A stretch of DNA of 47,747 bases from Promethearchaeota archaeon (GTDB lineage Archaea > Asgardarchaeota > Thorarchaeia > Thorarchaeales > Thorarchaeaceae), in contig JBHLPF010000029.1 of assembly GCA_048939765.1 (NCBI GenBank), positions 1 to 47,747 on the forward strand, read 5' to 3'. Shown here in pieces: positions 20,101 through 31,550 of the stretch. The number at the start of each line of letters is the position of its first letter. The stretch's first letter is position 1. The position numbers were made by a program, and so were the translations under genes. Under the pieces are notes generated by a model. That model saw nothing but the letters and a program-made list of their open reading frames with translations. It ran no database searches and was not told the origin of the DNA.

Positions 20101-20661
20101 CTAGAGTCCCAGGTCTGCTCTTGCTTCGATTTCCTGCTGATCCTGTAGTATCTTCTTCATTTGATGGCGAAGCTGAGCCTTGAGCTTAATCATATCATGG
20201 TCGAGACCAAAATAATCAGCAAAGAGGGGCGTAGTCTTCAGCGACTTACTCCTTCCTTCAGGAATCGCCTCAATGAACTTCTTCTCAATCAGTTCTTTGA
20301 TATGGTCATAGCAGTGAGTCCCTCTCTCAGCCACAAGCTCCGATTGTAGGATGGGCTGTTTCAAGGCCACATAAACTAGTGTCTGAAGCGTGGCGAATGA
20401 TAGAAGTCCACCCGGGATAAGTTTCGCGACATGAGGAGTCAATTCAGGCCTGAGTTGCATCACCCATCGCTCTCGGGGAAGCTCCACAACTTCAAGTGCT
20501 CCCTTTCGTTTATTGTACATATGACCAATCTCTTCCAACACTCGTTTTGTAGAGGACTCAGCTTTTCCCACAACAGCAGCCAGCTCCTCTATCGAAATTG
20601 GCCTTCCAGCCACATAGAGGGCAGCCTCTAGTTTCACCTTGTCATCATCCATAGAACTCAC
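20101..20661 (-). CDS. scpB: SMC-Scp complex KITE subunit
   Basis: Motifs LEAALY, TL..VA.KQPI, RG and TT..F.DYFGL; overlaps the scpA stop. Confidence 0.92.
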   Translation of the reverse strand: MSSMDDDKVKLEAALYVAGRPISIEELAAVVGKAESSTKRVLEEIGHMYNKRKGALEVVELPRERWVMQLRPELTPHVAKLIPGGLLSFATLQTLVYVALKQPILQSELVAERGTHCYDHIKELIEKKFIEAIPEGRSKSLKTTPLFADYFGLDHDMIKLKAQLRHQMKKILQDQQEIEARADLGL

Positions 20662-21374
20662 TTCGTTTCGATAGATGGATGTATCTCATCTTCCTCCTCA
20701 GACGGGGGAGGGGGAGGAAGCATCTTCACCCAGATGACATCATCTTCATCCATCCAGATGTCAATAAACGCTCTTCCATAGAGGTGAAGCAGGGCAAAGA
20801 AGACACGGACAATCTCCCTTCGAGTATTGTTCATAAGAATATCAACAAACTTTGCAGTTTCACCAATTTCCAATATTCTCAAGAGATCGTCATAGACTTC
20901 AGTTATGTTCTCCTCCACATCTGCCCTTGTAGTTTCCATTTTGAAGTCCATTGGCTCTATGCTGGGTCGATATCCTTTCTTCCGCGGAATAGCGTGCTGA
21001 CGAGGACCTTTGCTCAACACTCGGTCCATCGCTATTAGCAGTTCTTGAAGAGTGACTCGTTGATTGCTCACTCTAAATGGAGGTCGAATCAGAGGAATGA
21101 CAAGTTCTTCATCATCTGCATCCTTATCCGGAGGAAGAATCCCAAGCTCAACGAGTTCACGAGTCTTCCTCATGAATATGACAGATGCCGAGTACAGCGC
21201 ACTTCCTGAGATTCTGAAGTCAATGTCCCCTAGGCGTTTCATCTCACGAATGAAACCTGCAACTAGCTTACCGACATCAACATTCCACGGCTTGATCTTA
21301 TCCAGTTGAAGTACATCAGTGAGGAGAATGTAAGGCGGGGATGCCCAGAATGGTGAGTCCTCTTCCTCACTCAT
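20658..21374 (-). CDS. scpA: Kleisin, segregation and condensation protein A
   Basis: Motifs I.PW.VD, VTLQELL.A and C-terminal wHTH V..FFALLHL; lies between smc and scpB. Confidence 0.88.
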   Translation of the reverse strand: MSEEEDSPFWASPPYILLTDVLQLDKIKPWNVDVGKLVAGFIREMKRLGDIDFRISGSALYSASVIFMRKTRELVELGILPPDKDADDEELVIPLIRPPFRVSNQRVTLQELLIAMDRVLSKGPRQHAIPRKKGYRPSIEPMDFKMETTRADVEENITEVYDDLLRILEIGETAKFVDILMNNTRREIVRVFFALLHLYGRAFIDIWMDEDDVIWVKMLPPPPPSEEEDEIHPSIETK

Positions 21375-24300
21375 GCTACTTCTGCCACCTCCTCTAGGTC
21401 GAGCTTGACGATTCTTGAAATACCGTCCTGATTCGAAACGCCAACTAGGAGATCTGCCTTCCTGACTGTTGTCGTTCTCAAGGATACAACGATGAACTGG
21501 GATGATTTTGCCATCTCTGCGATAAGAAGGGCCACATTATGGGCATTGACATCATCTAATGCAGCATCAATCTCATCGAACACATAGAAGCTTGCTGGAT
21601 TATACATCTGGATGGCAAATATGAGCGCAAGACCCGTGATAGTCTTCTCGCCGCCACTCATGGCGTCCAGCGTCACCAGTTCTTTCCCTCTGGGTTTGGA
21701 TCTAACGGTGATACCGCCCATAAGTGGATGCTCTGGATTCTCAAGCATAAGTGTCGCCTCACCACCAGGTGAGAGCTTCGCAAAGACCTTTGCAAAGTTG
21801 TCTGCTATGTCATTGTACACCTGCAGGAATTTCCTAGTCTTCTCCGCTTCAATCTCTTCCATAAAAGCAAGAATCTCTTTATGTTCCTCCTCAAGTCGCG
21901 TCTTCTTGTCAACAATCTCCTCGTATTGGTCCTTCTCGATATCATAATCCGTGAGAGCCTTTAAGTTGACAGGTCCCAACACATCGAGCTCTCTCTCGAA
22001 TTCCTTTATCTTGTCATCGAAGGTATCAATCTCTTTGTAAGTCAGCTCCCGCTCCTTCGCCTTCTTGGCCATTTCCTCACTGGCATCTGCGAGTTCATTC
22101 AATTCGGCTGTAAGTCCAACCAAGTCGCTTTCGAGTCGTGATTGCTCCGTCTGGAGTCTATAGACTGCTTTCTCATTCGCAGTCTGCTCCTCCCGAATCT
22201 CCTCATGACGGAATCTGAGGTTTCGGAGATGTTCTTTCAACTCAAGCTGACGTACTCGTTTGTCCTTCACCGCCTCGTCTATCTTCTCACGTTCGGTCTT
22301 CAGCTTCTCAAAGTCCTGTTCTTTCTCCTTCAAATCAGATTGCAGCGCATCTACTCGTTTCTCCATGTCTGGAATACCCTTTTGCACCGTCTTCAGGCGA
22401 ACATCTAGCTCGGTGAGCTTCGGCTTGAGACGTTCATCCAGTGCTACTTTCAGACCAGTTATTTCGCTTGTCAGAACCTCGCGTTCTTGGTTATGGTGAT
22501 TGAGAACTTCTTTGAGATCCTTTAGATACTGAGTTAGTTTGGCGGTGTCGGATGTAGCCAAGGTTTCATTGGCCTCATCTCTTTGTTCTCTGACCCTCTC
22601 TCTGTGCTCTGACAGCTCAGAGTCCCTCTCCTGAAGCTCCGAAATCTGAGTTTCGAGTTCCTTGATTGTAACTTGAGCCTTGCTGATCTTCTCTTTGAGA
22701 AGGGCAGTCCTATTCTCTTTCTCTTCTAATCGTTCTTCAAGTCCTTCAAGTTCGAGCTTCGCTCTGTAGTTATTCTTCGAGAGGTCTTGAATCTCCAGGT
22801 CCAGCTTGCTCTTTTCCTTTTGAAGGCTATCCCGCTGATTGCGTAACTCTGACAATATCTCACTTAGTCCCTTGAGACGTTCGGCAATCTCTGGACTGGT
22901 GTCTTCCAGTTGAAGAGAGAGACCGGTCGCAGGTTTGTAGTAGTGACCGCCAGTAATCAGACCTGACCGTTCAACCAGATCGCCCTCTAGTGATACTGCT
23001 CTACGCCCCTTGAATCCCATTGCCTTTGCGGTTTCAAAGTCCTCCGTGACTAACGTGTCTTGGAAAACAAACTCGAAGGCTGGTCTCATTTTCTCATCGA
23101 ATTTTACAAGGTCAATCGCCAGGCCTATGACACCACGGTCATGAGGGACTCTCCCTGGCTTTTTGGTACTGATTCTATTGAGTGGGATGAATGAAGCTCT
23201 GCCAACCTTCTCAATCTTAAGTATGTTAACACATTTAGTGGCGACATCGTCATTCTCTACCACTATATGGGTGAGCCTGCTCCCTCCAGCGATTTCCATA
23301 GCTGAGGCATACTCAGAGTCGATTGTACCCAGCTCAGCTACTGTTCCATGGATGCCTTCCACAGTCTTTGAGTCACGGAGTTCGAGAATTCGACGGATTG
23401 CACGTTGTCGCTTTAGGAATGCTTCTTCAGCCTCTTTCAAAGCATCCTGTCGTGCTTGGACGCGAATTAGCTCCTCTTTTGTCTTTTCGACTATCTGGGC
23501 TGATTCTCGAACCTGCGCTTCTACCGTCCTGAGATTGTTCTCAATTCTTGCGACTTCATCTCCCTTGTTCCCTTCATTCTCTTCCGCTTGCTTGAGGGTT
23601 TCACGTCTTTCCGGTATGACTCTGCGAAGGTCTGACAGCTCTTCTTCCGTCTTTTCCAGCATCTCTGTTGAATCACGAAGCTCCTCATAGTTCATTCCAA
23701 GCTCTTTGCCATCGGTCTTTATCGCTGAACGAACCTCAGACACCCCTTCATCAAGCGCTCTCATCTGATTATTGAGATCTTGTAGCCTTAGTGTGATCTC
23801 AAATGATGTTGCTTGTTCCTTCTCTATTCGGTCCTCTAATCCGCTAATCTTGTTTGTACAGCCAAGTATCTCCTCATCCAATCTGGAAAGCTCTTGGTCT
23901 TTCTCCTTAACGAGCGCGTCTGAACCACTCACCTGTTCTTGGATTGACTGAATTTCAACCTCGACAGAAGTTCGCTCATCCATCTTCGTGTTGTATTCGC
24001 CCTGCATGCGTTCAAGATCTGCTCTGGCATGGTCTACAGCTGCTGAAACAACTCCGTATTGCTCTGAGATTCTAGCAGAGTCTCCGCCGGTTATTTGGTC
24101 AATTTCTCCATCAATGCTCTCGATCTCGAGGTCAGTGTCACCAATGCCCTGTTCCACTTCAACAAGTTCCCTGGAGAGGTTCTCCGCCTCTTCTGCTCTC
24201 TCGCCGAGAGTTTCTTGGATAGTTTCAATCCTGCTCTTTCCTTTGATAGCCCGCCAAGCTATGCTGTCGATTCTGACCTGTTTTATCTGCTTGTGAAGAC

Positions 24301-24961
24301 TCTGATGTCTGCGGGCATCAGTCATTTCTTCTTCAAGCTTCTCAAGTTGGCGCCTTCGTTCCTGAAGCTGCATCTCAACCTTTCCGAGATTAGTTTCGCT
24401 CTCTGCGAGTCTCTTGAGCGCACGCTCCTTTTGTTCATCGTATGCAGATATTCCAGCAATCTCTTCTATCAGCTTGCGCCTGTCTGTGGGGCTTACTTTT
24501 ACAATCTGTGCGATCTCTCCTTGTAGAACCAGATTGTATCCATTGGGATCGACACCAATTGCCCCTAGGACCTCTATGACCTGCGTTCTTGTTACAACTT
24601 TGCCATTGATTCGACATGTGGACTTGCCGGAATCATCAAGCTCTCTCTCAATCACAACTTTGTCTGAATCTACCTGCAGCTTTCTATCTCTGTTATCAAA
24701 ATGAAGCTCTACAGTAGCAGACTTGGCTTTGGGAGGCATATCCGGTTTTGGTGGCGAATACAGAAGGTCAGAGAACACGTTTGCACGAAGTGTCTTTGCG
24801 CTGAGCTGCCCAAGTACGAACAATACTGCATCAATGACGTTTGACTTGCCTGATCCATTAGGTCCAACAATACATGTGAAGCCCTCGTTGAGCTTGATGG
24901 TGACCGTGTCTCGTCCAAATGACTTGAAGCCCTTGCATACAAGCTTCTCTATGTGGACCAA
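21371..24961 (-). CDS. smc: Chromosome segregation ATPase SMC
   Basis: Walker A GPNGSGKSN, Q-loop LQG, hinge GIHGTVAEL..GRASFIPL..G.ITGG, signature MSGGEK, Walker B FDEIDAALD; long coiled coils. Confidence 0.98.
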   Translation of the reverse strand: MVHIEKLVCKGFKSFGRDTVTIKLNEGFTCIVGPNGSGKSNVIDAVLFVLGQLSAKTLRANVFSDLLYSPPKPDMPPKAKSATVELHFDNRDRKLQVDSDKVVIERELDDSGKSTCRINGKVVTRTQVIEVLGAIGVDPNGYNLVLQGEIAQIVKVSPTDRRKLIEEIAGISAYDEQKERALKRLAESETNLGKVEMQLQERRRQLEKLEEEMTDARRHQSLHKQIKQVRIDSIAWRAIKGKSRIETIQETLGERAEEAENLSRELVEVEQGIGDTDLEIESIDGEIDQITGGDSARISEQYGVVSAAVDHARADLERMQGEYNTKMDERTSVEVEIQSIQEQVSGSDALVKEKDQELSRLDEEILGCTNKISGLEDRIEKEQATSFEITLRLQDLNNQMRALDEGVSEVRSAIKTDGKELGMNYEELRDSTEMLEKTEEELSDLRRVIPERRETLKQAEENEGNKGDEVARIENNLRTVEAQVRESAQIVEKTKEELIRVQARQDALKEAEEAFLKRQRAIRRILELRDSKTVEGIHGTVAELGTIDSEYASAMEIAGGSRLTHIVVENDDVATKCVNILKIEKVGRASFIPLNRISTKKPGRVPHDRGVIGLAIDLVKFDEKMRPAFEFVFQDTLVTEDFETAKAMGFKGRRAVSLEGDLVERSGLITGGHYYKPATGLSLQLEDTSPEIAERLKGLSEILSELRNQRDSLQKEKSKLDLEIQDLSKNNYRAKLELEGLEERLEEKENRTALLKEKISKAQVTIKELETQISELQERDSELSEHRERVREQRDEANETLATSDTAKLTQYLKDLKEVLNHHNQEREVLTSEITGLKVALDERLKPKLTELDVRLKTVQKGIPDMEKRVDALQSDLKEKEQDFEKLKTEREKIDEAVKDKRVRQLELKEHLRNLRFRHEEIREEQTANEKAVYRLQTEQSRLESDLVGLTAELNELADASEEMAKKAKERELTYKEIDTFDDKIKEFERELDVLGPVNLKALTDYDIEKDQYEEIVDKKTRLEEEHKEILAFMEEIEAEKTRKFLQVYNDIADNFAKVFAKLSPGGEATLMLENPEHPLMGGITVRSKPRGKELVTLDAMSGGEKTITGLALIFAIQMYNPASFYVFDEIDAALDDVNAHNVALLIAEMAKSSQFIVVSLRTTTVRKADLLVGVSNQDGISRIVKLDLEEVAEVA

Positions 24962-25156: not shown

Positions 25157-25519
25157 TCAGCTAACCATTGCCACTAAGGCTCGCTTAAGAGCCATTCTTA
25201 GCAGTCCCATGGACTCGCGAGCTCCCTCTCCTGCAATTCCAGCAAGAACTACCTTTACATCGCCTAGAATTACGATGTAGCCATTGTCAGCCGCGACGGA
25301 TACCTCTTTCAATCCTCCCTTGTCTAGTCCACTGGATAGTTGCGAGGAGTTTCCAGCAATCTTGACTGCAAGGTTTGCGACATCAGAATGCTTGATGCCC
25401 CCACTGATAGTATGACCAAAGATCACGTTCCCCTTTGCATCGCATACTACTATGCCCTCTAAGTTCTCATTGGCCGCCATTGTATCGGCAATCACTTGCT
25501 TTACCTTTTCTTCATCCAC
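25157..25519 (-). CDS. Roadblock/LC7 domain protein (divergently transcribed)
   Basis: Roadblock pattern: GIVVCD..G.V, long helix, L.KG.L.EV.V....GYIVI, C-terminal GLLR helix. Confidence 0.8.
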   Translation of the reverse strand: MDEEKVKQVIADTMAANENLEGIVVCDAKGNVIFGHTISGGIKHSDVANLAVKIAGNSSQLSSGLDKGGLKEVSVAADNGYIVILGDVKVVLAGIAGEGARESMGLLRMALKRALVAMVS

Positions 25520-25679
25520 TTTGACATACTCTCCGTGGGCACTGCCTGTCTGAATGGTGCTATTCTTCTAAAAACCGTTTCTCCTATAAATGGGAGTATT
25601 CCTTTCGCGGATGATTTTCGTAGCTTAGGTTAAATACGCAAATGTGAACCTAGGCCCAAGACTTTTGGAGTCGAATTTA

Positions 25680-27305
25680 ATGCCTATGCTGAGAACTACT
25701 TCGGAGGCTTTTCCTTCATCAAAGGATGTACTGAAAGACCTCCCATACGTCTTGCGAGTCGAATTTGGAGACTTGGCACGAGACGTTACTAAGATTGTTG
25801 GTAAGCCAATTGCTTGCCATAAATGCAATGGCTTCCTTCTCAGTGTAGATCAGATACTAGAGGATGACAAAGTCGGAAAGCACTTTGTCTGTCCTTTCTG
25901 TGGTACACTGAATGTTATTGAAGGGGAGATCGTTGTCGCAGGCGACGATACAGACTTCGTTGTGAAACCACCACAAGACATAGAGACCGGTACTGATACA
26001 ATCTCAACAGGCGGCCGGTCTTTCTTGGCGTTGATAGACGTTTCTGGGTCCATGGCTGGCGAAAACTTGGCAGCAGTAAAGCGCAGTCTAAACACATCAA
26101 TTGACAGTCTGGCAGCCAACACTCCAGACGCAATGTTTGGTCTGATTGAGTTTGAAAGCACTGTGGTCTGCAGAAATCTGGAAACCGGGGAGCCCATCGA
26201 ACTCCCGAGAGAGTCCTTCCAAAGTCTGGACTCGATCATGGATTCGACGAAGAGCCTGTTGGACAAAATCAAGATGGTCAAGGTCGGTGACAAGTCATCA
26301 GATCTGAAACGACATGTTGCTGCGCTGAGAGACCAGGGTGGAACTGCACTGGGGCCAGCTGTGGGTATGGCCTACACAATAGCCAAACACCGAGATGTTG
26401 GTCGAATTGTGCTTCTCACCGACGGGCTTGCCAATGAAGGAATTGGCGCCCTTGAGGGATACCAGGTCACTCCTGCCAACAAATACTACGAAGACCTCGG
26501 TGATGAGTTCAGAAAGATTGGAGCCGCCTTCGATGTCGTAGGTATCGCGTCAGGTGGAGCCATGGAACTCAAGACACTGGGTCTGTTGCCGGAGGCTACT
26601 GGAGGCACTATGTACTATGTGACACCTAATGAACTGGATAGAAGCCTCTCAGAGCTTGCAGGAGCAGCCCTTCTGGGGCGTGATGTGGAGGTCAAACTCA
26701 TCACACCTGAGGGAGTCAGGCTCAAGGATGCATCTGGTGCATCCCGTGCAGTTCTTGAGGAGCTCAAGAAGAAGGGCGGCGGAAAGATTGGAGTTGTCGG
26801 TGAGGATCATGAGCTATACTTTGAGGTAGAGCCTGAGAAGAAGATCAAGGATGAGGAAGTCCCGATTCAGGTACAGGTCTCTTACACTGACAATGAGGGT
26901 GCGAGAAGGGTCCGTGCAGTGACAACCAAACTGAAGGTTTCTGAGAAAGAGGATGAGATCATGAAGACTCTCGACCCAACTGTAGGCGCGACCTTTGTCA
27001 CTCAGAAAGCTGGTGAGGATGCAGTAAGGGGCGACCGCAAGAAGGGCAAGGAGAGACTTGCCTTATTCAGGACCGCCATGAAGGCTCGTGCAAAGGCTGC
27101 ACCCAAGCCCGTCAAGGCGATGCTCGATAAGGCCGATGATGTCCTTGAGAGTGAAGAGATGGAGCTTGAGCGTCAGGAGGCACGGTTGATGGAAGCCCCT
27201 GCTGGAGGCGCTGCACCATCTGCAGCCGCTGACATGACTGCGGTCGAAAACCTAGCTCAAATGAAGCGTAGCTCTAAGAGGATGTTTGACGACAACGAAG
27301 AATAA
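25680..27305 (+). CDS. Sec23/Sec24-like Zn finger + vWA + beta-sandwich protein
   Basis: PIACHKC...FVCPFCGTLN; MIDAS DVSGSM, GGTALG and LLTDG; TGG; QVSYTD.EG.RRVR..T. Start placed at ATG 25680/25686 because TTAAATA (25630-36) lies too close to GTG 25644. Confidence 0.8.
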   Translation: MPMLRTTSEAFPSSKDVLKDLPYVLRVEFGDLARDVTKIVGKPIACHKCNGFLLSVDQILEDDKVGKHFVCPFCGTLNVIEGEIVVAGDDTDFVVKPPQDIETGTDTISTGGRSFLALIDVSGSMAGENLAAVKRSLNTSIDSLAANTPDAMFGLIEFESTVVCRNLETGEPIELPRESFQSLDSIMDSTKSLLDKIKMVKVGDKSSDLKRHVAALRDQGGTALGPAVGMAYTIAKHRDVGRIVLLTDGLANEGIGALEGYQVTPANKYYEDLGDEFRKIGAAFDVVGIASGGAMELKTLGLLPEATGGTMYYVTPNELDRSLSELAGAALLGRDVEVKLITPEGVRLKDASGASRAVLEELKKKGGGKIGVVGEDHELYFEVEPEKKIKDEEVPIQVQVSYTDNEGARRVRAVTTKLKVSEKEDEIMKTLDPTVGATFVTQKAGEDAVRGDRKKGKERLALFRTAMKARAKAAPKPVKAMLDKADDVLESEEMELERQEARLMEAPAGGAAPSAAADMTAVENLAQMKRSSKRMFDDNEE

Positions 27306-27314
27306 ACGATAACA

Positions 27315-27357
27315 GAGTGGCGTTGCTGCGAGCAGCGTCGCTCAACCCTCTTTTTCT
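27315..27357 (+). terminator. Hairpin plus T-tract after the Sec23/24-like gene
   Basis: GAGTGGCGTTGCT-GCG-AGCAGCGTCGCTC (13 bp, 3 G-U pairs), then CTCTTTTTCT. Confidence 0.55.
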
Positions 27358-27499
27358 GTCATACAGGCTTCGGTTGGTACAAGTTTCAAAATGCGCAAAC
27401 GGGCTCTCTTACCATAATAATGTCATCATAACTGCTAAATACCCAACTGCGGCGTTAGGATTTGTCAAATGGACAATTGAAAGCAGCGGAGATTCTACT

Positions 27500-27796
27500 T
27501 TGATAAGTCAAGAGCGGCTCAACAGCATCCTCCAACAACTAAAGGCTCAAGACGGCGTCCGTGGGGTCGTGGTCACCACCATGGAAGGTCTTCCTCTGAG
27601 CAGTGACCTGGATGCAGAAACAACCGAGAACGTCGCTGCAATCATAACCTCTCTTGTAGGAAAGGCACTGGACACGGTGCGTCTCCTACGCGAGGGATCA
27701 TTGTCCTTCCTTACCTTGGACACAACACAAGGTCAAATAAACATCGCACCCGATGAAAAAGAGGGCCTGATATTAGTGGTCCTCAAGAAGAACTAG
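27500..27796 (+). CDS. Short roadblock protein resembling dynein light chain roadblock (DYNLRB/LC7)
   Basis: TTG at 27500 after GGAGA; GV.GVVV...EGLP..S, KA..TVR.L, L.FL and I.IAPD; no C-terminal helix. Confidence 0.85.
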   Translation: MISQERLNSILQQLKAQDGVRGVVVTTMEGLPLSSDLDAETTENVAAIITSLVGKALDTVRLLREGSLSFLTLDTTQGQINIAPDEKEGLILVVLKKN

Positions 27797-27815
27797 TATG
27801 TATGGGGCTATATCC

Positions 27816-28286
27816 ATGAGCGATCCGAAAGCGTTCGACAGAATCCTCACGGACATCATCCGTCAAGAAAAGGGAATCCGCAAGGTCATCCTTGTAGATA
27901 AGACAGGTCTGACTATTGCTAACGTGAGCAAGCTGTCATATTATCCAGTGGACGTCGACAGTATCGGCGCAATTGCGTCTGCGGTCTTTTGTGCCTCAGA
28001 GGAACAAGGAAAGAATCTGCAGATCGGCGAGCTCGAGATTGTCACGAGCGAGTTTAGCGAGGGCAAGATATTCGCATCTGCGTGCGGCAAGGGTGTGCTG
28101 TGCGTTGTGTCTGATGCCGATGTTAATATAGGCATGATACGTCTTGTCATGAAGAAGCAGGGTGTTCAGCTCGCAGACGAGCTTGACAAGTTCCTGGCAG
28201 TGGAGCCACTAGCTCCCAGCGGTAAGGACAAGGAGCTGGATGAGGAGGACCTCAAGTCCGCCCTCGCAGAGCTTGAGAGGGTCTGA
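27816..28286 (+). CDS. MglB-like roadblock protein with acidic C-terminal helix
   Basis: LVDKTGL.IA, A.ASA.F, NIGMIRL; tail DEEDLKSALAELERV. Confidence 0.85.
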   Translation: MSDPKAFDRILTDIIRQEKGIRKVILVDKTGLTIANVSKLSYYPVDVDSIGAIASAVFCASEEQGKNLQIGELEIVTSEFSEGKIFASACGKGVLCVVSDADVNIGMIRLVMKKQGVQLADELDKFLAVEPLAPSGKDKELDEEDLKSALAELERV

Positions 28287-28441: not shown

Positions 28442-29005
28442 ATACGTAAAGACGACAAAGGCCGCATACATCTCAAGTTGGTCTTCTACGGACCATCACT
28501 CGGAGGCAAAACAACTGCACTTCGTTGGCTCTACGGAAAAGTTGAAGGTCTCCAGAAGGGAGAGTTCACTGCAATCGAGGATGAAACCAACCGCACTCTG
28601 TTCTTTGACTATGTCCCAATGAGTGCAGGAGGTCGAGTGCTCTTCGATGTGTTCACAGTCGCTGGTCAGAAGCGTCATAGGCACCAGAGAAAAGTAGTGC
28701 TCCAGGGCACTGATGGCATACTGTTTGTTGCTGACTCATCCCCAGATCAGAGGGATGAGAACACAGAGAGCTTCGAAGAACTCAAGCTCTTCCTAGGAGA
28801 TGCTCTGGGCCGTGAGATACCCATAGTGGTCATGCTAAACAAGCGAGATTTACCGAATAGAATGTCGCGTGATGAGATGCTAGACCTTCTCGGTCTTGGG
28901 GGCAATGTTCCAATCTATGAAACGATTGCTGTACAAGGCGTAGGAGTTAAGAGGGCGTTTCAGGCAATAGCGAGGGAAGTCATCCTCAAAAGAATGTACA
29001 AATGA
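28442..29005 (+). CDS. mglA: MglA-family small GTPase (start uncertain, probably ATA 28442)
   Basis: G1 YGPSLGGKTT, RTLFFD, G3 TVAGQ, G.DG..FVADS, G4 NKRD and G5 A..G.GV. Confidence 0.88.
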   Translation: MRKDDKGRIHLKLVFYGPSLGGKTTALRWLYGKVEGLQKGEFTAIEDETNRTLFFDYVPMSAGGRVLFDVFTVAGQKRHRHQRKVVLQGTDGILFVADSSPDQRDENTESFEELKLFLGDALGREIPIVVMLNKRDLPNRMSRDEMLDLLGLGGNVPIYETIAVQGVGVKRAFQAIAREVILKRMYK

Positions 29006-29022
29006 TTGACTAGGTGAGGCGA

Positions 29023-29394
29023 ATGTCAGAGACCCGCGGAGACACTTTGGAAGGCGTTCTTAATGAACTTCAGGGCAGCATACCTGAGATTGAGGCGTGC
29101 GCAATAGTCAGCGTAGAAGGGCTTCCGATTGTGTCAGCTCTGCCCACAGATGTTGATGAGGCAAAGGTAGCTGCTATGACTGCAGCAATGCTTACTCTTG
29201 GAGAAAAGGCTGCAATCGAACTTGGGAAGGGCAATCTGGAGCAGGTCAACATCAAGGGTATAGACGGCTGGCTACTTGTTATTCAGGCCGGAATGAACGC
29301 ATGCCTTACGGTGTCTACCACCGCCAGTGCCAAGCTAGGAATGGTCTTTCTGGAGATGAAACGAGCAGCTGAGAAAGTCTCGGGGATGATCTAG
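29023..29394 (+). CDS. Roadblock/LC7 (MglB-like) protein
   Basis: Motifs AIVSVEGLPI.S, VAAM.AAML.LG, EL.KG.LEQV and KLGMV. Confidence 0.9.
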   Translation: MSETRGDTLEGVLNELQGSIPEIEACAIVSVEGLPIVSALPTDVDEAKVAAMTAAMLTLGEKAAIELGKGNLEQVNIKGIDGWLLVIQAGMNACLTVSTTASAKLGMVFLEMKRAAEKVSGMI

Positions 29395-30335: not shown

Positions 30336-31550
30336 ATGGAGGAGACTATATCCTTGGCACGCAAGCCAATTGATGTCTACCAAGGTCTGATTACGACAAA
30401 GCTATCGGTAGATAGTGTCTCACAGATCGATTCTCTAATCGGACGTTATGAGGACCAAATGTTAGCCGGTCACAAGCTCTCCTTTCACCTCAAAAAATTC
30501 ATAGAATTCTGGACTAGACACTGCGCATTTCTTGATAACCGTGAAACAACAACCATGTCAGATCTAACCATAGCCATAGATCTGTTAGATTACTTTACCT
30601 CAACCTCAAAATGGTGGACAATGACACGAGAGGATCCCGGACTCATCTTGAAACTTCCATCACGTGACCCCCGTGAATTCATCAAATCGATTCCTCTGGT
30701 TCAGATGGGGGCTGAAACTCTCGGTCGTGTTACTGGTGCAAGGGATCGACTCGTTCGTTTCCTAGAGGAACATGAATTGGGTGACGATAGAACTCGTGCC
30801 ACACTGGCTGAGCATCTAGTATCGATCTGGCTGCTCCTTTGTGGTTTTTCCTGCAAAGGACAAGGACGGAACATCACCACGGAAGAAGATTTTGAAACCG
30901 CATATGATATTGTTCGGATTCTGCTCTTCTACATGTCCCTAAACGATTTCAAGGCACTCACCGCAGTGCGTCAGATTGCCACTGATCCTAATCTTCCCAA
31001 AATTGCGGTGATTGGTTTCTCTCCCGGGTTTGAACGAAGACTAGACTCTTCGCTTGCCGCGAGCCTGGAGCATGTGCATGGTGAATTTCTGACAAATCTG
31101 GCCTCTTCGACTCCCGGTGCATCAAGAAACATCCTCACCAACTCTTTGCGCATCCTAGGGCAGCTACAAGCTATGAAACTTGAGATGACAAGGATTGAGA
31201 AAGAGGACTATGACTCGATTATTGTCGGGGCCATGGGCCTCCTTGAAAGGCTTGATGTGCCTGCGACGCTGCTCCAGAACGAAGATGAAGTTGTAGCACT
31301 GTTCAAGAGTCTACAACCCGGTGAAGGTGTTGAAGAGAAGCTATCTTTTCTAACAAAGAGAATAGAGGGATTGCTGGTAGACTCAGCTGGCAACAGAGAC
31401 TACGTGCTTCAATATTCGAGAATGGTTCCTCGAATTATAGCTCTCCTACTACTGGTCGCTGCGGCAACCAAAACGGAGCCGACAGCGCCTCTTCAAGACC
31501 AAGATTTGAAGAGAGGTCTCATTCTGCTCAACAGACTGTTCAGTGACTAG
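30336..31550 (+). CDS. Hypothetical helical protein with four AAA+-lid-like repeats
   Basis: 404 aa; CTTTATAT TATA-like box upstream; repeats described in findings. Confidence 0.75.
   Translation: MEETISLARKPIDVYQGLITTKLSVDSVSQIDSLIGRYEDQMLAGHKLSFHLKKFIEFWTRHCAFLDNRETTTMSDLTIAIDLLDYFTSTSKWWTMTREDPGLILKLPSRDPREFIKSIPLVQMGAETLGRVTGARDRLVRFLEEHELGDDRTRATLAEHLVSIWLLLCGFSCKGQGRNITTEEDFETAYDIVRILLFYMSLNDFKALTAVRQIATDPNLPKIAVIGFSPGFERRLDSSLAASLEHVHGEFLTNLASSTPGASRNILTNSLRILGQLQAMKLEMTRIEKEDYDSIIVGAMGLLERLDVPATLLQNEDEVVALFKSLQPGEGVEEKLSFLTKRIEGLLVDSAGNRDYVLQYSRMVPRIIALLLLVAAATKTEPTAPLQDQDLKRGLILLNRLFSD

Follow-up and report, generated by a model that had tools for sequence, protein, structure and literature searches.

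We analyzed a 47,747-nucleotide stretch of Asgard archaeal DNA (Promethearchaeota archaeon, Thorarchaeaceae; assembly GCA_048939765.1, contig JBHLPF010000029.1, positions 1 to 47,747 of the forward strand; hereafter the window), which carries at 25680-27305 a gene for a protein resembling Sec23 and Sec24, the inner-coat subunits of coat protein complex II (COPII). Sec23/24-like proteins of Asgard archaea are invoked to argue that proto-COPII trafficking predates eukaryotes. Our sequence comparisons place the encoded protein (hereafter the Thor protein) closest, outside the Asgard archaea, to a little-studied, non-coat eukaryotic family: the C-terminal half of circularly permuted Ras protein 1 (CPRas1), together with its relatives that lack the circularly permuted Ras (cpRAS) domain. 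The gene and its domains are laid out as follows.

25680-27305, forward strand: Sec24-like gene, 541 aa, with zinc finger, von Willebrand factor A (vWA) domain bearing a MIDAS (metal ion-dependent adhesion site), beta-sandwich and helical domain (Pfam, AlphaFold2 model, Foldseek, VIA-align)
25815-25901, forward strand: C4 zinc finger, C46, C49, C71 and C74 (CHKC...CPFC by translation; zf-Sec23_Sec24, E 0.003)
26019-26669, forward strand: vWA "trunk", about aa 114-330 (Pfam Sec23_trunk, VWA_2 and VWA; secondary structure of the model)
26037-26051, forward strand: MIDAS D120-x-S122-x-S124 (DVSGS; translation IDVSGSM at 26034-26054)
26343-26345, forward strand: MIDAS Thr222 (GGTALGPA; translation 26337-26432)
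26421-26423, forward strand: MIDAS Asp248 (LLTDGLAN; same translated segment)
26670-26942, forward strand: beta-sandwich, about aa 331-421 (Pfam Sec23_BS, 1e-7; model strands 331-421)
26949-27287, forward strand: helical domain, about aa 424-536 (model helices 424-536; VIA alignment reaching Sec23A residue 624)

The reading frame is open on the forward strand from a GTG at 25644 to 27305, and the database form of the protein begins at the ATG at 25680. Pfam matches of the 541-residue protein comprised Sec23_trunk (7e-11), VWA_2 (1.7e-8), VWA, Sec23_BS (1e-7, slightly below the curated Pfam cut-off) and zf-Sec23_Sec24 (0.003), and the same scan returned no helical-domain, gelsolin, VIT or Ras match. 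GTPase motifs were absent from the protein, as was an N-terminal circularly permuted Ras arrangement (G3-G4-G5-G1-G2). Each of the four zinc-finger cysteines is invariant or at least 90% conserved among Asgard orthologues. The C4 finger, complete MIDAS and beta-sandwich that a preliminary description had read from the DNA were all recovered by translation, Pfam and the structural model.

More than 100 orthologues of near-identical length share 72-88% identity with the Thor protein, and the named ones all come from Thorarchaeota or Promethearchaeota metagenome-assembled genomes; one is called "SEC24 family transport protein [Thorarchaeota SMTZ1-45]", and orthologues of this type, 74-88% identical to the Thor protein, have its length and its set of Pfam matches. 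The source genome, which is 88.5% complete, contains a single Sec23_trunk match. Across a search of 400 Asgard genomes the gene was found in 148, including 78 of the 85 genomes of the Thor family, and the control genomes of this search yielded no Sec23_trunk match. A second, incomplete copy, corresponding to residues 1-179 at 86% identity, lies far from the full-length gene in one complete Thor-family genome (G369:C1:931703-932242).

To characterize the fold, we built an AlphaFold2 model from a 139-sequence alignment, which reached a predicted local distance difference test score (pLDDT) of 94.7 and a predicted template modeling score (pTM) of 0.93. Sec24 and Sec23 chains headed the Foldseek search against the PDB (E ~1e-29, TM score 0.70-0.74), a comparison that the preliminary description had proposed as a check, and were followed after a gap by a generic vWA protein (4fx5, 1e-16) and by ArnB (8s05, 1e-15). 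YfbK/VIT-type prokaryotic vWA proteins, whose VIT domain the Thor protein lacks, ranked well below Sec23/24. With VIA-align, 492 of the 541 residues were aligned to residues 13-624 of the Sec23A chain (Z 30.0), and Sec24A scored similarly (Z 29.8); the values for the crenarchaeal proteins ArnB and ArnE (8s05 and 5a8j) were 25.7 and 23.4, and that for 4fx5 was 22.4. The ArnB alignment covered 366 residues over the vWA domain with its MIDAS, the beta-sandwich and the helical bundle. The zinc finger and N-terminal strands, which are part of the Thor protein, are not fused to ArnB but supplied in trans by ArnA, and the ArnB MIDAS is metal-occupied (PMC12852372). ArnB-like archaeal vWA regulators operate together with a separate ZnF-FHA protein under the control of kinases.

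Zinc finger, vWA trunk, beta-sandwich and helical domain thus stand in the same order as in COPII Sec23/Sec24. The Sec23/Sec24 heterodimer binds Sar1-GTP, and the gelsolin domain of Sec23 carries the arginine finger for its GTPase-activating protein (GAP) activity on Sar1. In contrast to those subunits, the Thor protein has no C-terminal gelsolin-like domain and no arginine finger: it terminates after the helical domain, and the Sec23A alignment ends at residue 624 of 765. Since the C-terminal helices (424-536) align through the Sec23/24 region that precedes the gelsolin domain, only the latter is missing. The preliminary description was therefore right that some 540 residues leave no room for a gelsolin domain and that helices close the protein, but its "short helical tail" is in fact the whole Sec23/24 region preceding that domain. 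Because the domain with the arginine finger is absent, a Sec23-type GAP role is unlikely, as had also been proposed. A further apparent difference from COPII is the single gene found in the 88.5% complete source genome, compared with the Sec23/Sec24 paralogue pair.

KRSSKRMF closes the helical domain, and an acidic tail comes after it. C-terminal sequences resembling [KR]x[ST][KR]x[LM]F recur in many Asgard orthologues (window ~27240-27302); the Thor family has an acidic tail beyond this motif, and many other Asgard families have a polybasic end (KKKK, RKKK) instead. These C-termini suggest a regulated peptide or a membrane anchor.

The Asgard Sec23/24-like family and its missing gelsolin domain are already published (PMC11914678; Nat Commun 2025). 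That paper describes Asgard Sec23-like proteins as having the Sec23 fold with the gelsolin domain missing and calls them coat precursors, and the family as described there shows no structural difference from the Thor protein. The passages of it that were searched do not mention a conserved MIDAS, CPRas-type relatives or an MglA/Roadblock context, and the term "vWA" has no match in them.

The MIDAS is complete throughout the family. D120, S122, S124, T222 and D248 are kept in every full-length Asgard and eukaryotic row of the alignment, T222 and D248 being invariant across all 139 Asgard and eukaryotic sequences. The residue-level comparison with COPII covered human Sec24A: in the profile alignment, its first motif is DVSHN, the Thr position is S and the Asp position is Q, so that the third Ser and the Asp of its MIDAS are replaced (by N and Q), whereas the Asgard family retains the full site. 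That these five residues are conserved in both archaea and eukaryotes speaks for a functional metal site.

We next consider the relationship to CPRas proteins. Elias and Novotny (2008; PMC2430557) described CPRas1 as an N-terminal circularly permuted Ras domain joined to a C-terminal half with four conserved cysteines and a vWA/Sec23-trunk domain, and reported cpRAS-less relatives in several eukaryotes. We searched 1.84 billion protein representatives exhaustively with the Thor protein (phmmer). About 40 Asgard-type orthologues came first, directly followed by eukaryotic proteins of ~580-940 aa that matched residues ~129-470 with 90-125 bits. Eighteen of the latter carry DxxG, NKxD and GxxxxGK[ST] in the permuted G3-G4-G1 order upstream of a C4 finger and DxSxS, and the source name of the matches in Diadema, Acanthaster and Tubulanus is "circularly permutated Ras protein 1-like". 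Others lack the cpRAS domain, including proteins of Entamoeba invadens, Anaeramoeba, Diphylleia, a choanoflagellate and Pyxidicula. The Pfam architecture of the CPRas matches consists of Ras (in two stretches), zf-Sec23_Sec24, Sec23_trunk and Sec23_BS, with no gelsolin match in the scan.

An hhalign comparison of 31 Asgard proteins with the 18 CPRas proteins gave a probability of 100 and an E-value of 5.4e-70 over 469 aligned columns, running colinearly from the strand before the finger through to the helical region, and ESM Atlas neighbours were consistent with this affinity. The consensus of the 139-sequence alignment holds TALGPA, TDGLAN.G.G, FY..G, TGG and Q.QI.YT...G.K..RV.T, which include every motif that the preliminary description had compared to CPRas1. 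Its central suggestion, a likeness to the non-GTPase half of CPRas1, is thus supported alike by phmmer, source names, Pfam architecture and hhalign. The CPRas1 C-terminal half and the cpRAS-less proteins share with the Thor protein the C4 finger, the vWA trunk with an identical MIDAS, the beta-sandwich and the helical region, and all lack gelsolin. They differ in that the Thor protein has no cpRAS domain or other N-terminal extension (many eukaryotic members are also without cpRAS) and in that CPRas-type proteins, unlike the Asgard family, carry an insert after DxSGSM. A search of a limited collection of papers found none linking Asgard Sec23/24-like proteins to CPRas.

To rank the related families, we compared profiles of equal size. 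The Asgard profile scored a median of 219 bits against CPRas cores, 89 bits against Sec24 (E ~3e-24, from the zinc finger to the helical domain), 48 bits against ArnB (a local match at profile positions 108-171), 34 bits against Sec23 (E ~1e-7) and 31 bits against the vWA domain of ITIH. Generic vWA/VIT proteins reached 27-44 bits against the family profile; the best matches are therefore not generic prokaryotic vWA proteins, the outcome that the preliminary description had named as fatal to its proposal. The eukaryotic cpRAS-less profile scored 69 bits against Sec24A and 28 against Sec23; it was used for this comparison because Ras chains dominate the PDB list of the CPRas profile. Single-sequence PDB searches, which are too weak for ranking families, gave 21 bits to Sec24D for the Thor protein and no match for the Entamoeba member. 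Overall, similarity to the CPRas-type family is much greater than to Sec24 or Sec23, and the architecture is identical. By sequence, the CPRas1 C-terminal half and the cpRAS-less zinc finger/vWA proteins are confirmed as the nearest non-Asgard relatives, and the Asgard family sits between the CPRas-type family and Sec24/Sec23.

Phylogenies of Asgard and eukaryotic CPRas-type sequences were inferred with FastTree (139 sequences) and IQ-TREE (68 sequences, LG+C20+F+G4). All Asgard sequences fell on one side of a fully supported branch (FastTree 100; IQ-TREE SH-aLRT 100), outside the eukaryotic CPRas-type clade. In the FastTree phylogeny, cpRAS-bearing proteins formed a well-supported clade nested among cpRAS-less eukaryotic proteins; with a root on the Asgard side, the fusion is thus a secondary acquisition.

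In the window, the Sec24-like gene is flanked by genes for Roadblock/LC7 proteins (RB0 to RB3) and a small GTPase, as follows.

25157-25519, reverse strand: RB0, Roadblock/LC7-like, divergent from the Sec24-like gene (Robl_LC7 8.7e-4, LAMTOR5; orthologues kept in the cluster)
27317-27796, forward strand: RB1, Roadblock/LC7; open reading frame from 27317, probable start TTG 27500 (orthologues ~99 aa)
27798-28286, forward strand: RB2, Roadblock/LC7 (MAPKK1_Int/LAMTOR3-like; Pfam)
28442-29005, forward strand: MglA-family small GTPase; conserved homology from 28442, first canonical start TTG 28478
29014-29394, forward strand: RB3, Roadblock/LC7 (Pfam)

Scores of the neighbouring GTPase were 134 bits against MglA of Myxococcus and Thermus, 48 bits against Arf and 33 bits against KRas; the cpRAS domain is a true Ras and matches KRas with 276 bits. 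The MglA-type GTPase is unusually strongly conserved, being 97-100% identical across Thor-family genera, where the Sec24-like protein is only ~76% identical, and still 58-67% identical in distant Asgard families. The TTG at 28478 lies inside its conserved N-terminus, and in other genomes the homologues, whose open frames span 189-193 aa, are 100% identical to it from 28442 onwards, so that the true start is upstream and either non-canonical or misread.

In the Thor family, the same gene order recurs in 29 loci as far as the sequence reaches, and the full order is found in three further genera. The Sec24-like and MglA genes lie at most 5 kb apart on one contig in about 57 of the 78 gene-bearing Thor-family genomes, the rest being mostly contig breaks. 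This adjacency is not attributable to chance, since Roadblock and small-GTPase matches number no more than 13 and 12, respectively, in the 3.37 Mb of the source genome. Across the phylum, the MglA gene is nearly universal (244 of 400 Asgard genomes at 1e-45). The Sec24-like gene was not found in the MglA-bearing families f4, f6, f9, f10 and f11 of the genome set, and was found in only one of the 31 genomes of f8; family f22 shows the reverse, with the Sec24-like gene in 23 of 135 genomes and MglA in 5.

Comparison of module loci (L052, L053, L055, L057, L058 and L059) showed that families f2, f14 and f16, as well as one Thor-family genome, have the entire arrangement of a divergent RB0 beside RB1-RB2-MglA-RB3 with no Sec24-like gene in it; families f4 and f15 likewise have RB1-RB2-MglA-RB3 without the Sec24-like gene, but with no detected RB0. 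In at least three of these five sampled families (f2, f4, f14, f15 and f16) the Sec24-like gene lies elsewhere in the same genome, and in one genome (G117) it is 860 kb from the MglA gene on a single contig. Since other families have the module without the gene, the Sec24-like gene is a Thor-specific insertion between RB0 and RB1, and the module itself resembles an independent MglA/Roadblock system that is ancient and spans the phylum. Orthologues beyond the Thor family have immediate neighbours that include genes for a beta-lactamase-family protein, PhoU_div, Fe-ADH and MFS proteins, with a Roadblock gene directly upstream in f19 and a Rab-like GTPase gene 0.8 kb upstream in f22. In the latter family (L039-L041, L050), a gene for an Rce1-like CAAX prenyl protease lies ~2 kb upstream, followed by the Rab-like GTPase gene and a truncated peroxiredoxin reading frame. 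The GTPase was considered as a CAAX protein and rejected, as it ends in ...TLFEDY, with no CAAX box.

From the observed fold, domain order, MIDAS conservation, CPRas-type affinity and synteny pattern, we consider it probable that the Thor protein belongs to an Asgard-wide, usually single-copy family with the Sec23/24 fold and a MIDAS, related to CPRas-type proteins, that serves as a metal-dependent adaptor and whose gene entered the MglA/Roadblock module in the Thor family alone. The MIDAS, loaded with Mg2+ or Mn2+, would complete its coordination through an acidic or phosphorylated residue of a partner, and the protein would thereby act as a metal-dependent protein-protein adaptor. With its gene placed between the divergent RB0 and RB1 of the older module, it would plausibly be an effector or scaffold of the MglA/Roadblock switch, to which a physical link may exist. 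Several points weigh against this account. We infer both metal binding and contact with MglA/Roadblock; with a spacer of ~195 nt before the probable start of RB1, the Sec24-like gene may or may not be co-transcribed with it; and each gene occurs without the other across families, which argues against an obligate partnership. As the trees contain no Sec23/24, the affinity to the CPRas-type family may reflect either orthology or retained ancestral similarity. In addition, co-immunoprecipitation of other Asgard Sec23-like proteins with an Asgard Arf is reported to be weak and nucleotide-independent (PMC11914678).

The alternatives share part of this evidence. The Thor protein could belong to the inner coat of a proto-COPII and thus be the direct functional ancestor of Sec23/24; it would then bind an Arf/Sar-like GTPase at the membrane and act in membrane deformation or cargo selection. 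Such a role would fit the whole-length Sec23/24 fold, the Sec24 profile match from zinc finger to helical domain, the polybasic tails of many non-Thor orthologues, which could bind acidic membranes, and the "coat precursors" label in the literature (PMC11914678). We nevertheless judge it unlikely: the Sec23 arginine finger is absent along with the gelsolin domain, all MIDAS residues are kept whereas two of them are lost in Sec24A, one copy was found per genome rather than a Sec23/Sec24-like pair, the sequence is far closer to a non-coat family, and the neighbouring GTPase is of the MglA and not the Arf/Sar type. Moreover, the same paper reports that co-immunoprecipitation showed no GTP-dependent binding to an Asgard Arf and that Sar1-contact residues are missing from Asgard Sec23-like proteins. 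The strong structural match to ArnB raises another scenario, a phospho-regulated vWA switch with an ArnA-like zinc finger fused to it, working in a kinase/phosphatase-controlled complex unrelated to GTPases. The metal-occupied ArnB MIDAS and the zinc finger provided in trans by ArnA (PMC12852372) would suit it, and the conserved [KR]x[ST][KR]x[LM]F motif could be a phospho-site. However, at the sequence level the Thor protein's family shows ArnB a weak match confined to one region (48 bits, against 89 bits along the full length to Sec24), the window around the locus contains no FHA, kinase, PP2A or MoxR gene, and neighbours in other families are unrelated housekeeping genes, making this scenario improbable in our view.

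The preliminary description had gone further and read the adjacency as Rosetta-stone evidence for an ancient, inherited GTPase-vWA partnership, later fixed in eukaryotes as the cpRAS-vWA fusion. The fold is indeed tied to GTPases three times (Sec23 with Sar1, the cpRAS-vWA fusion, and the Thor gene beside MglA), and the Rab-like GTPase gene of f22 and the Roadblock gene of f19 lie close to orthologues. Yet the three GTPases come from different families, MglA being distinct from Ras; the cpRAS fusion is derived within the eukaryotic clade; five other sampled families have the Roadblock/MglA module but not the gene inside it, the gene lying elsewhere in the genome in at least three of them; and immediate neighbours outside the Thor family are of other kinds. 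An inherited partnership is largely refuted by synteny, and we regard it as very improbable. The ties to Sar1, Ras and MglA instead suggest a recurrent association. With slightly more doubt than belief, we also put forward a broader proposal: Asgard Sec23/24-like proteins may be co-orthologues of two eukaryotic families, of which the slowly evolving CPRas1-type would keep the ancestral function and the MIDAS, and Sec23/24 would have branched off and evolved rapidly, losing the MIDAS and acquiring the gelsolin domain. The fold would then be a metal-dependent adaptor wired at least three separate times to small GTPases (Sar1, cpRAS and, in Thorarchaeota, MglA).

If the nearest eukaryotic counterparts of these proteins are a non-coat MIDAS family, the ancestral function was probably metal-dependent adaptor binding and not coat formation, and the CPRas-type proteins of tractable eukaryotes (Dictyostelium) would be the best model for it. 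The Thorarchaeota-specific insertion into the ancient MglA/Roadblock module provides a concrete candidate partner set and cautions against taking gene adjacency in a single Asgard lineage for an ancestral partnership.

Two further features of the window deserve mention. Downstream of a UPP synthase gene, a 404-aa open reading frame at 30336-31550 has no Pfam match at E 0.01. On the reverse strand at 20101-24961, directly upstream of RB0, lies a complete SMC-ScpA-ScpB operon.

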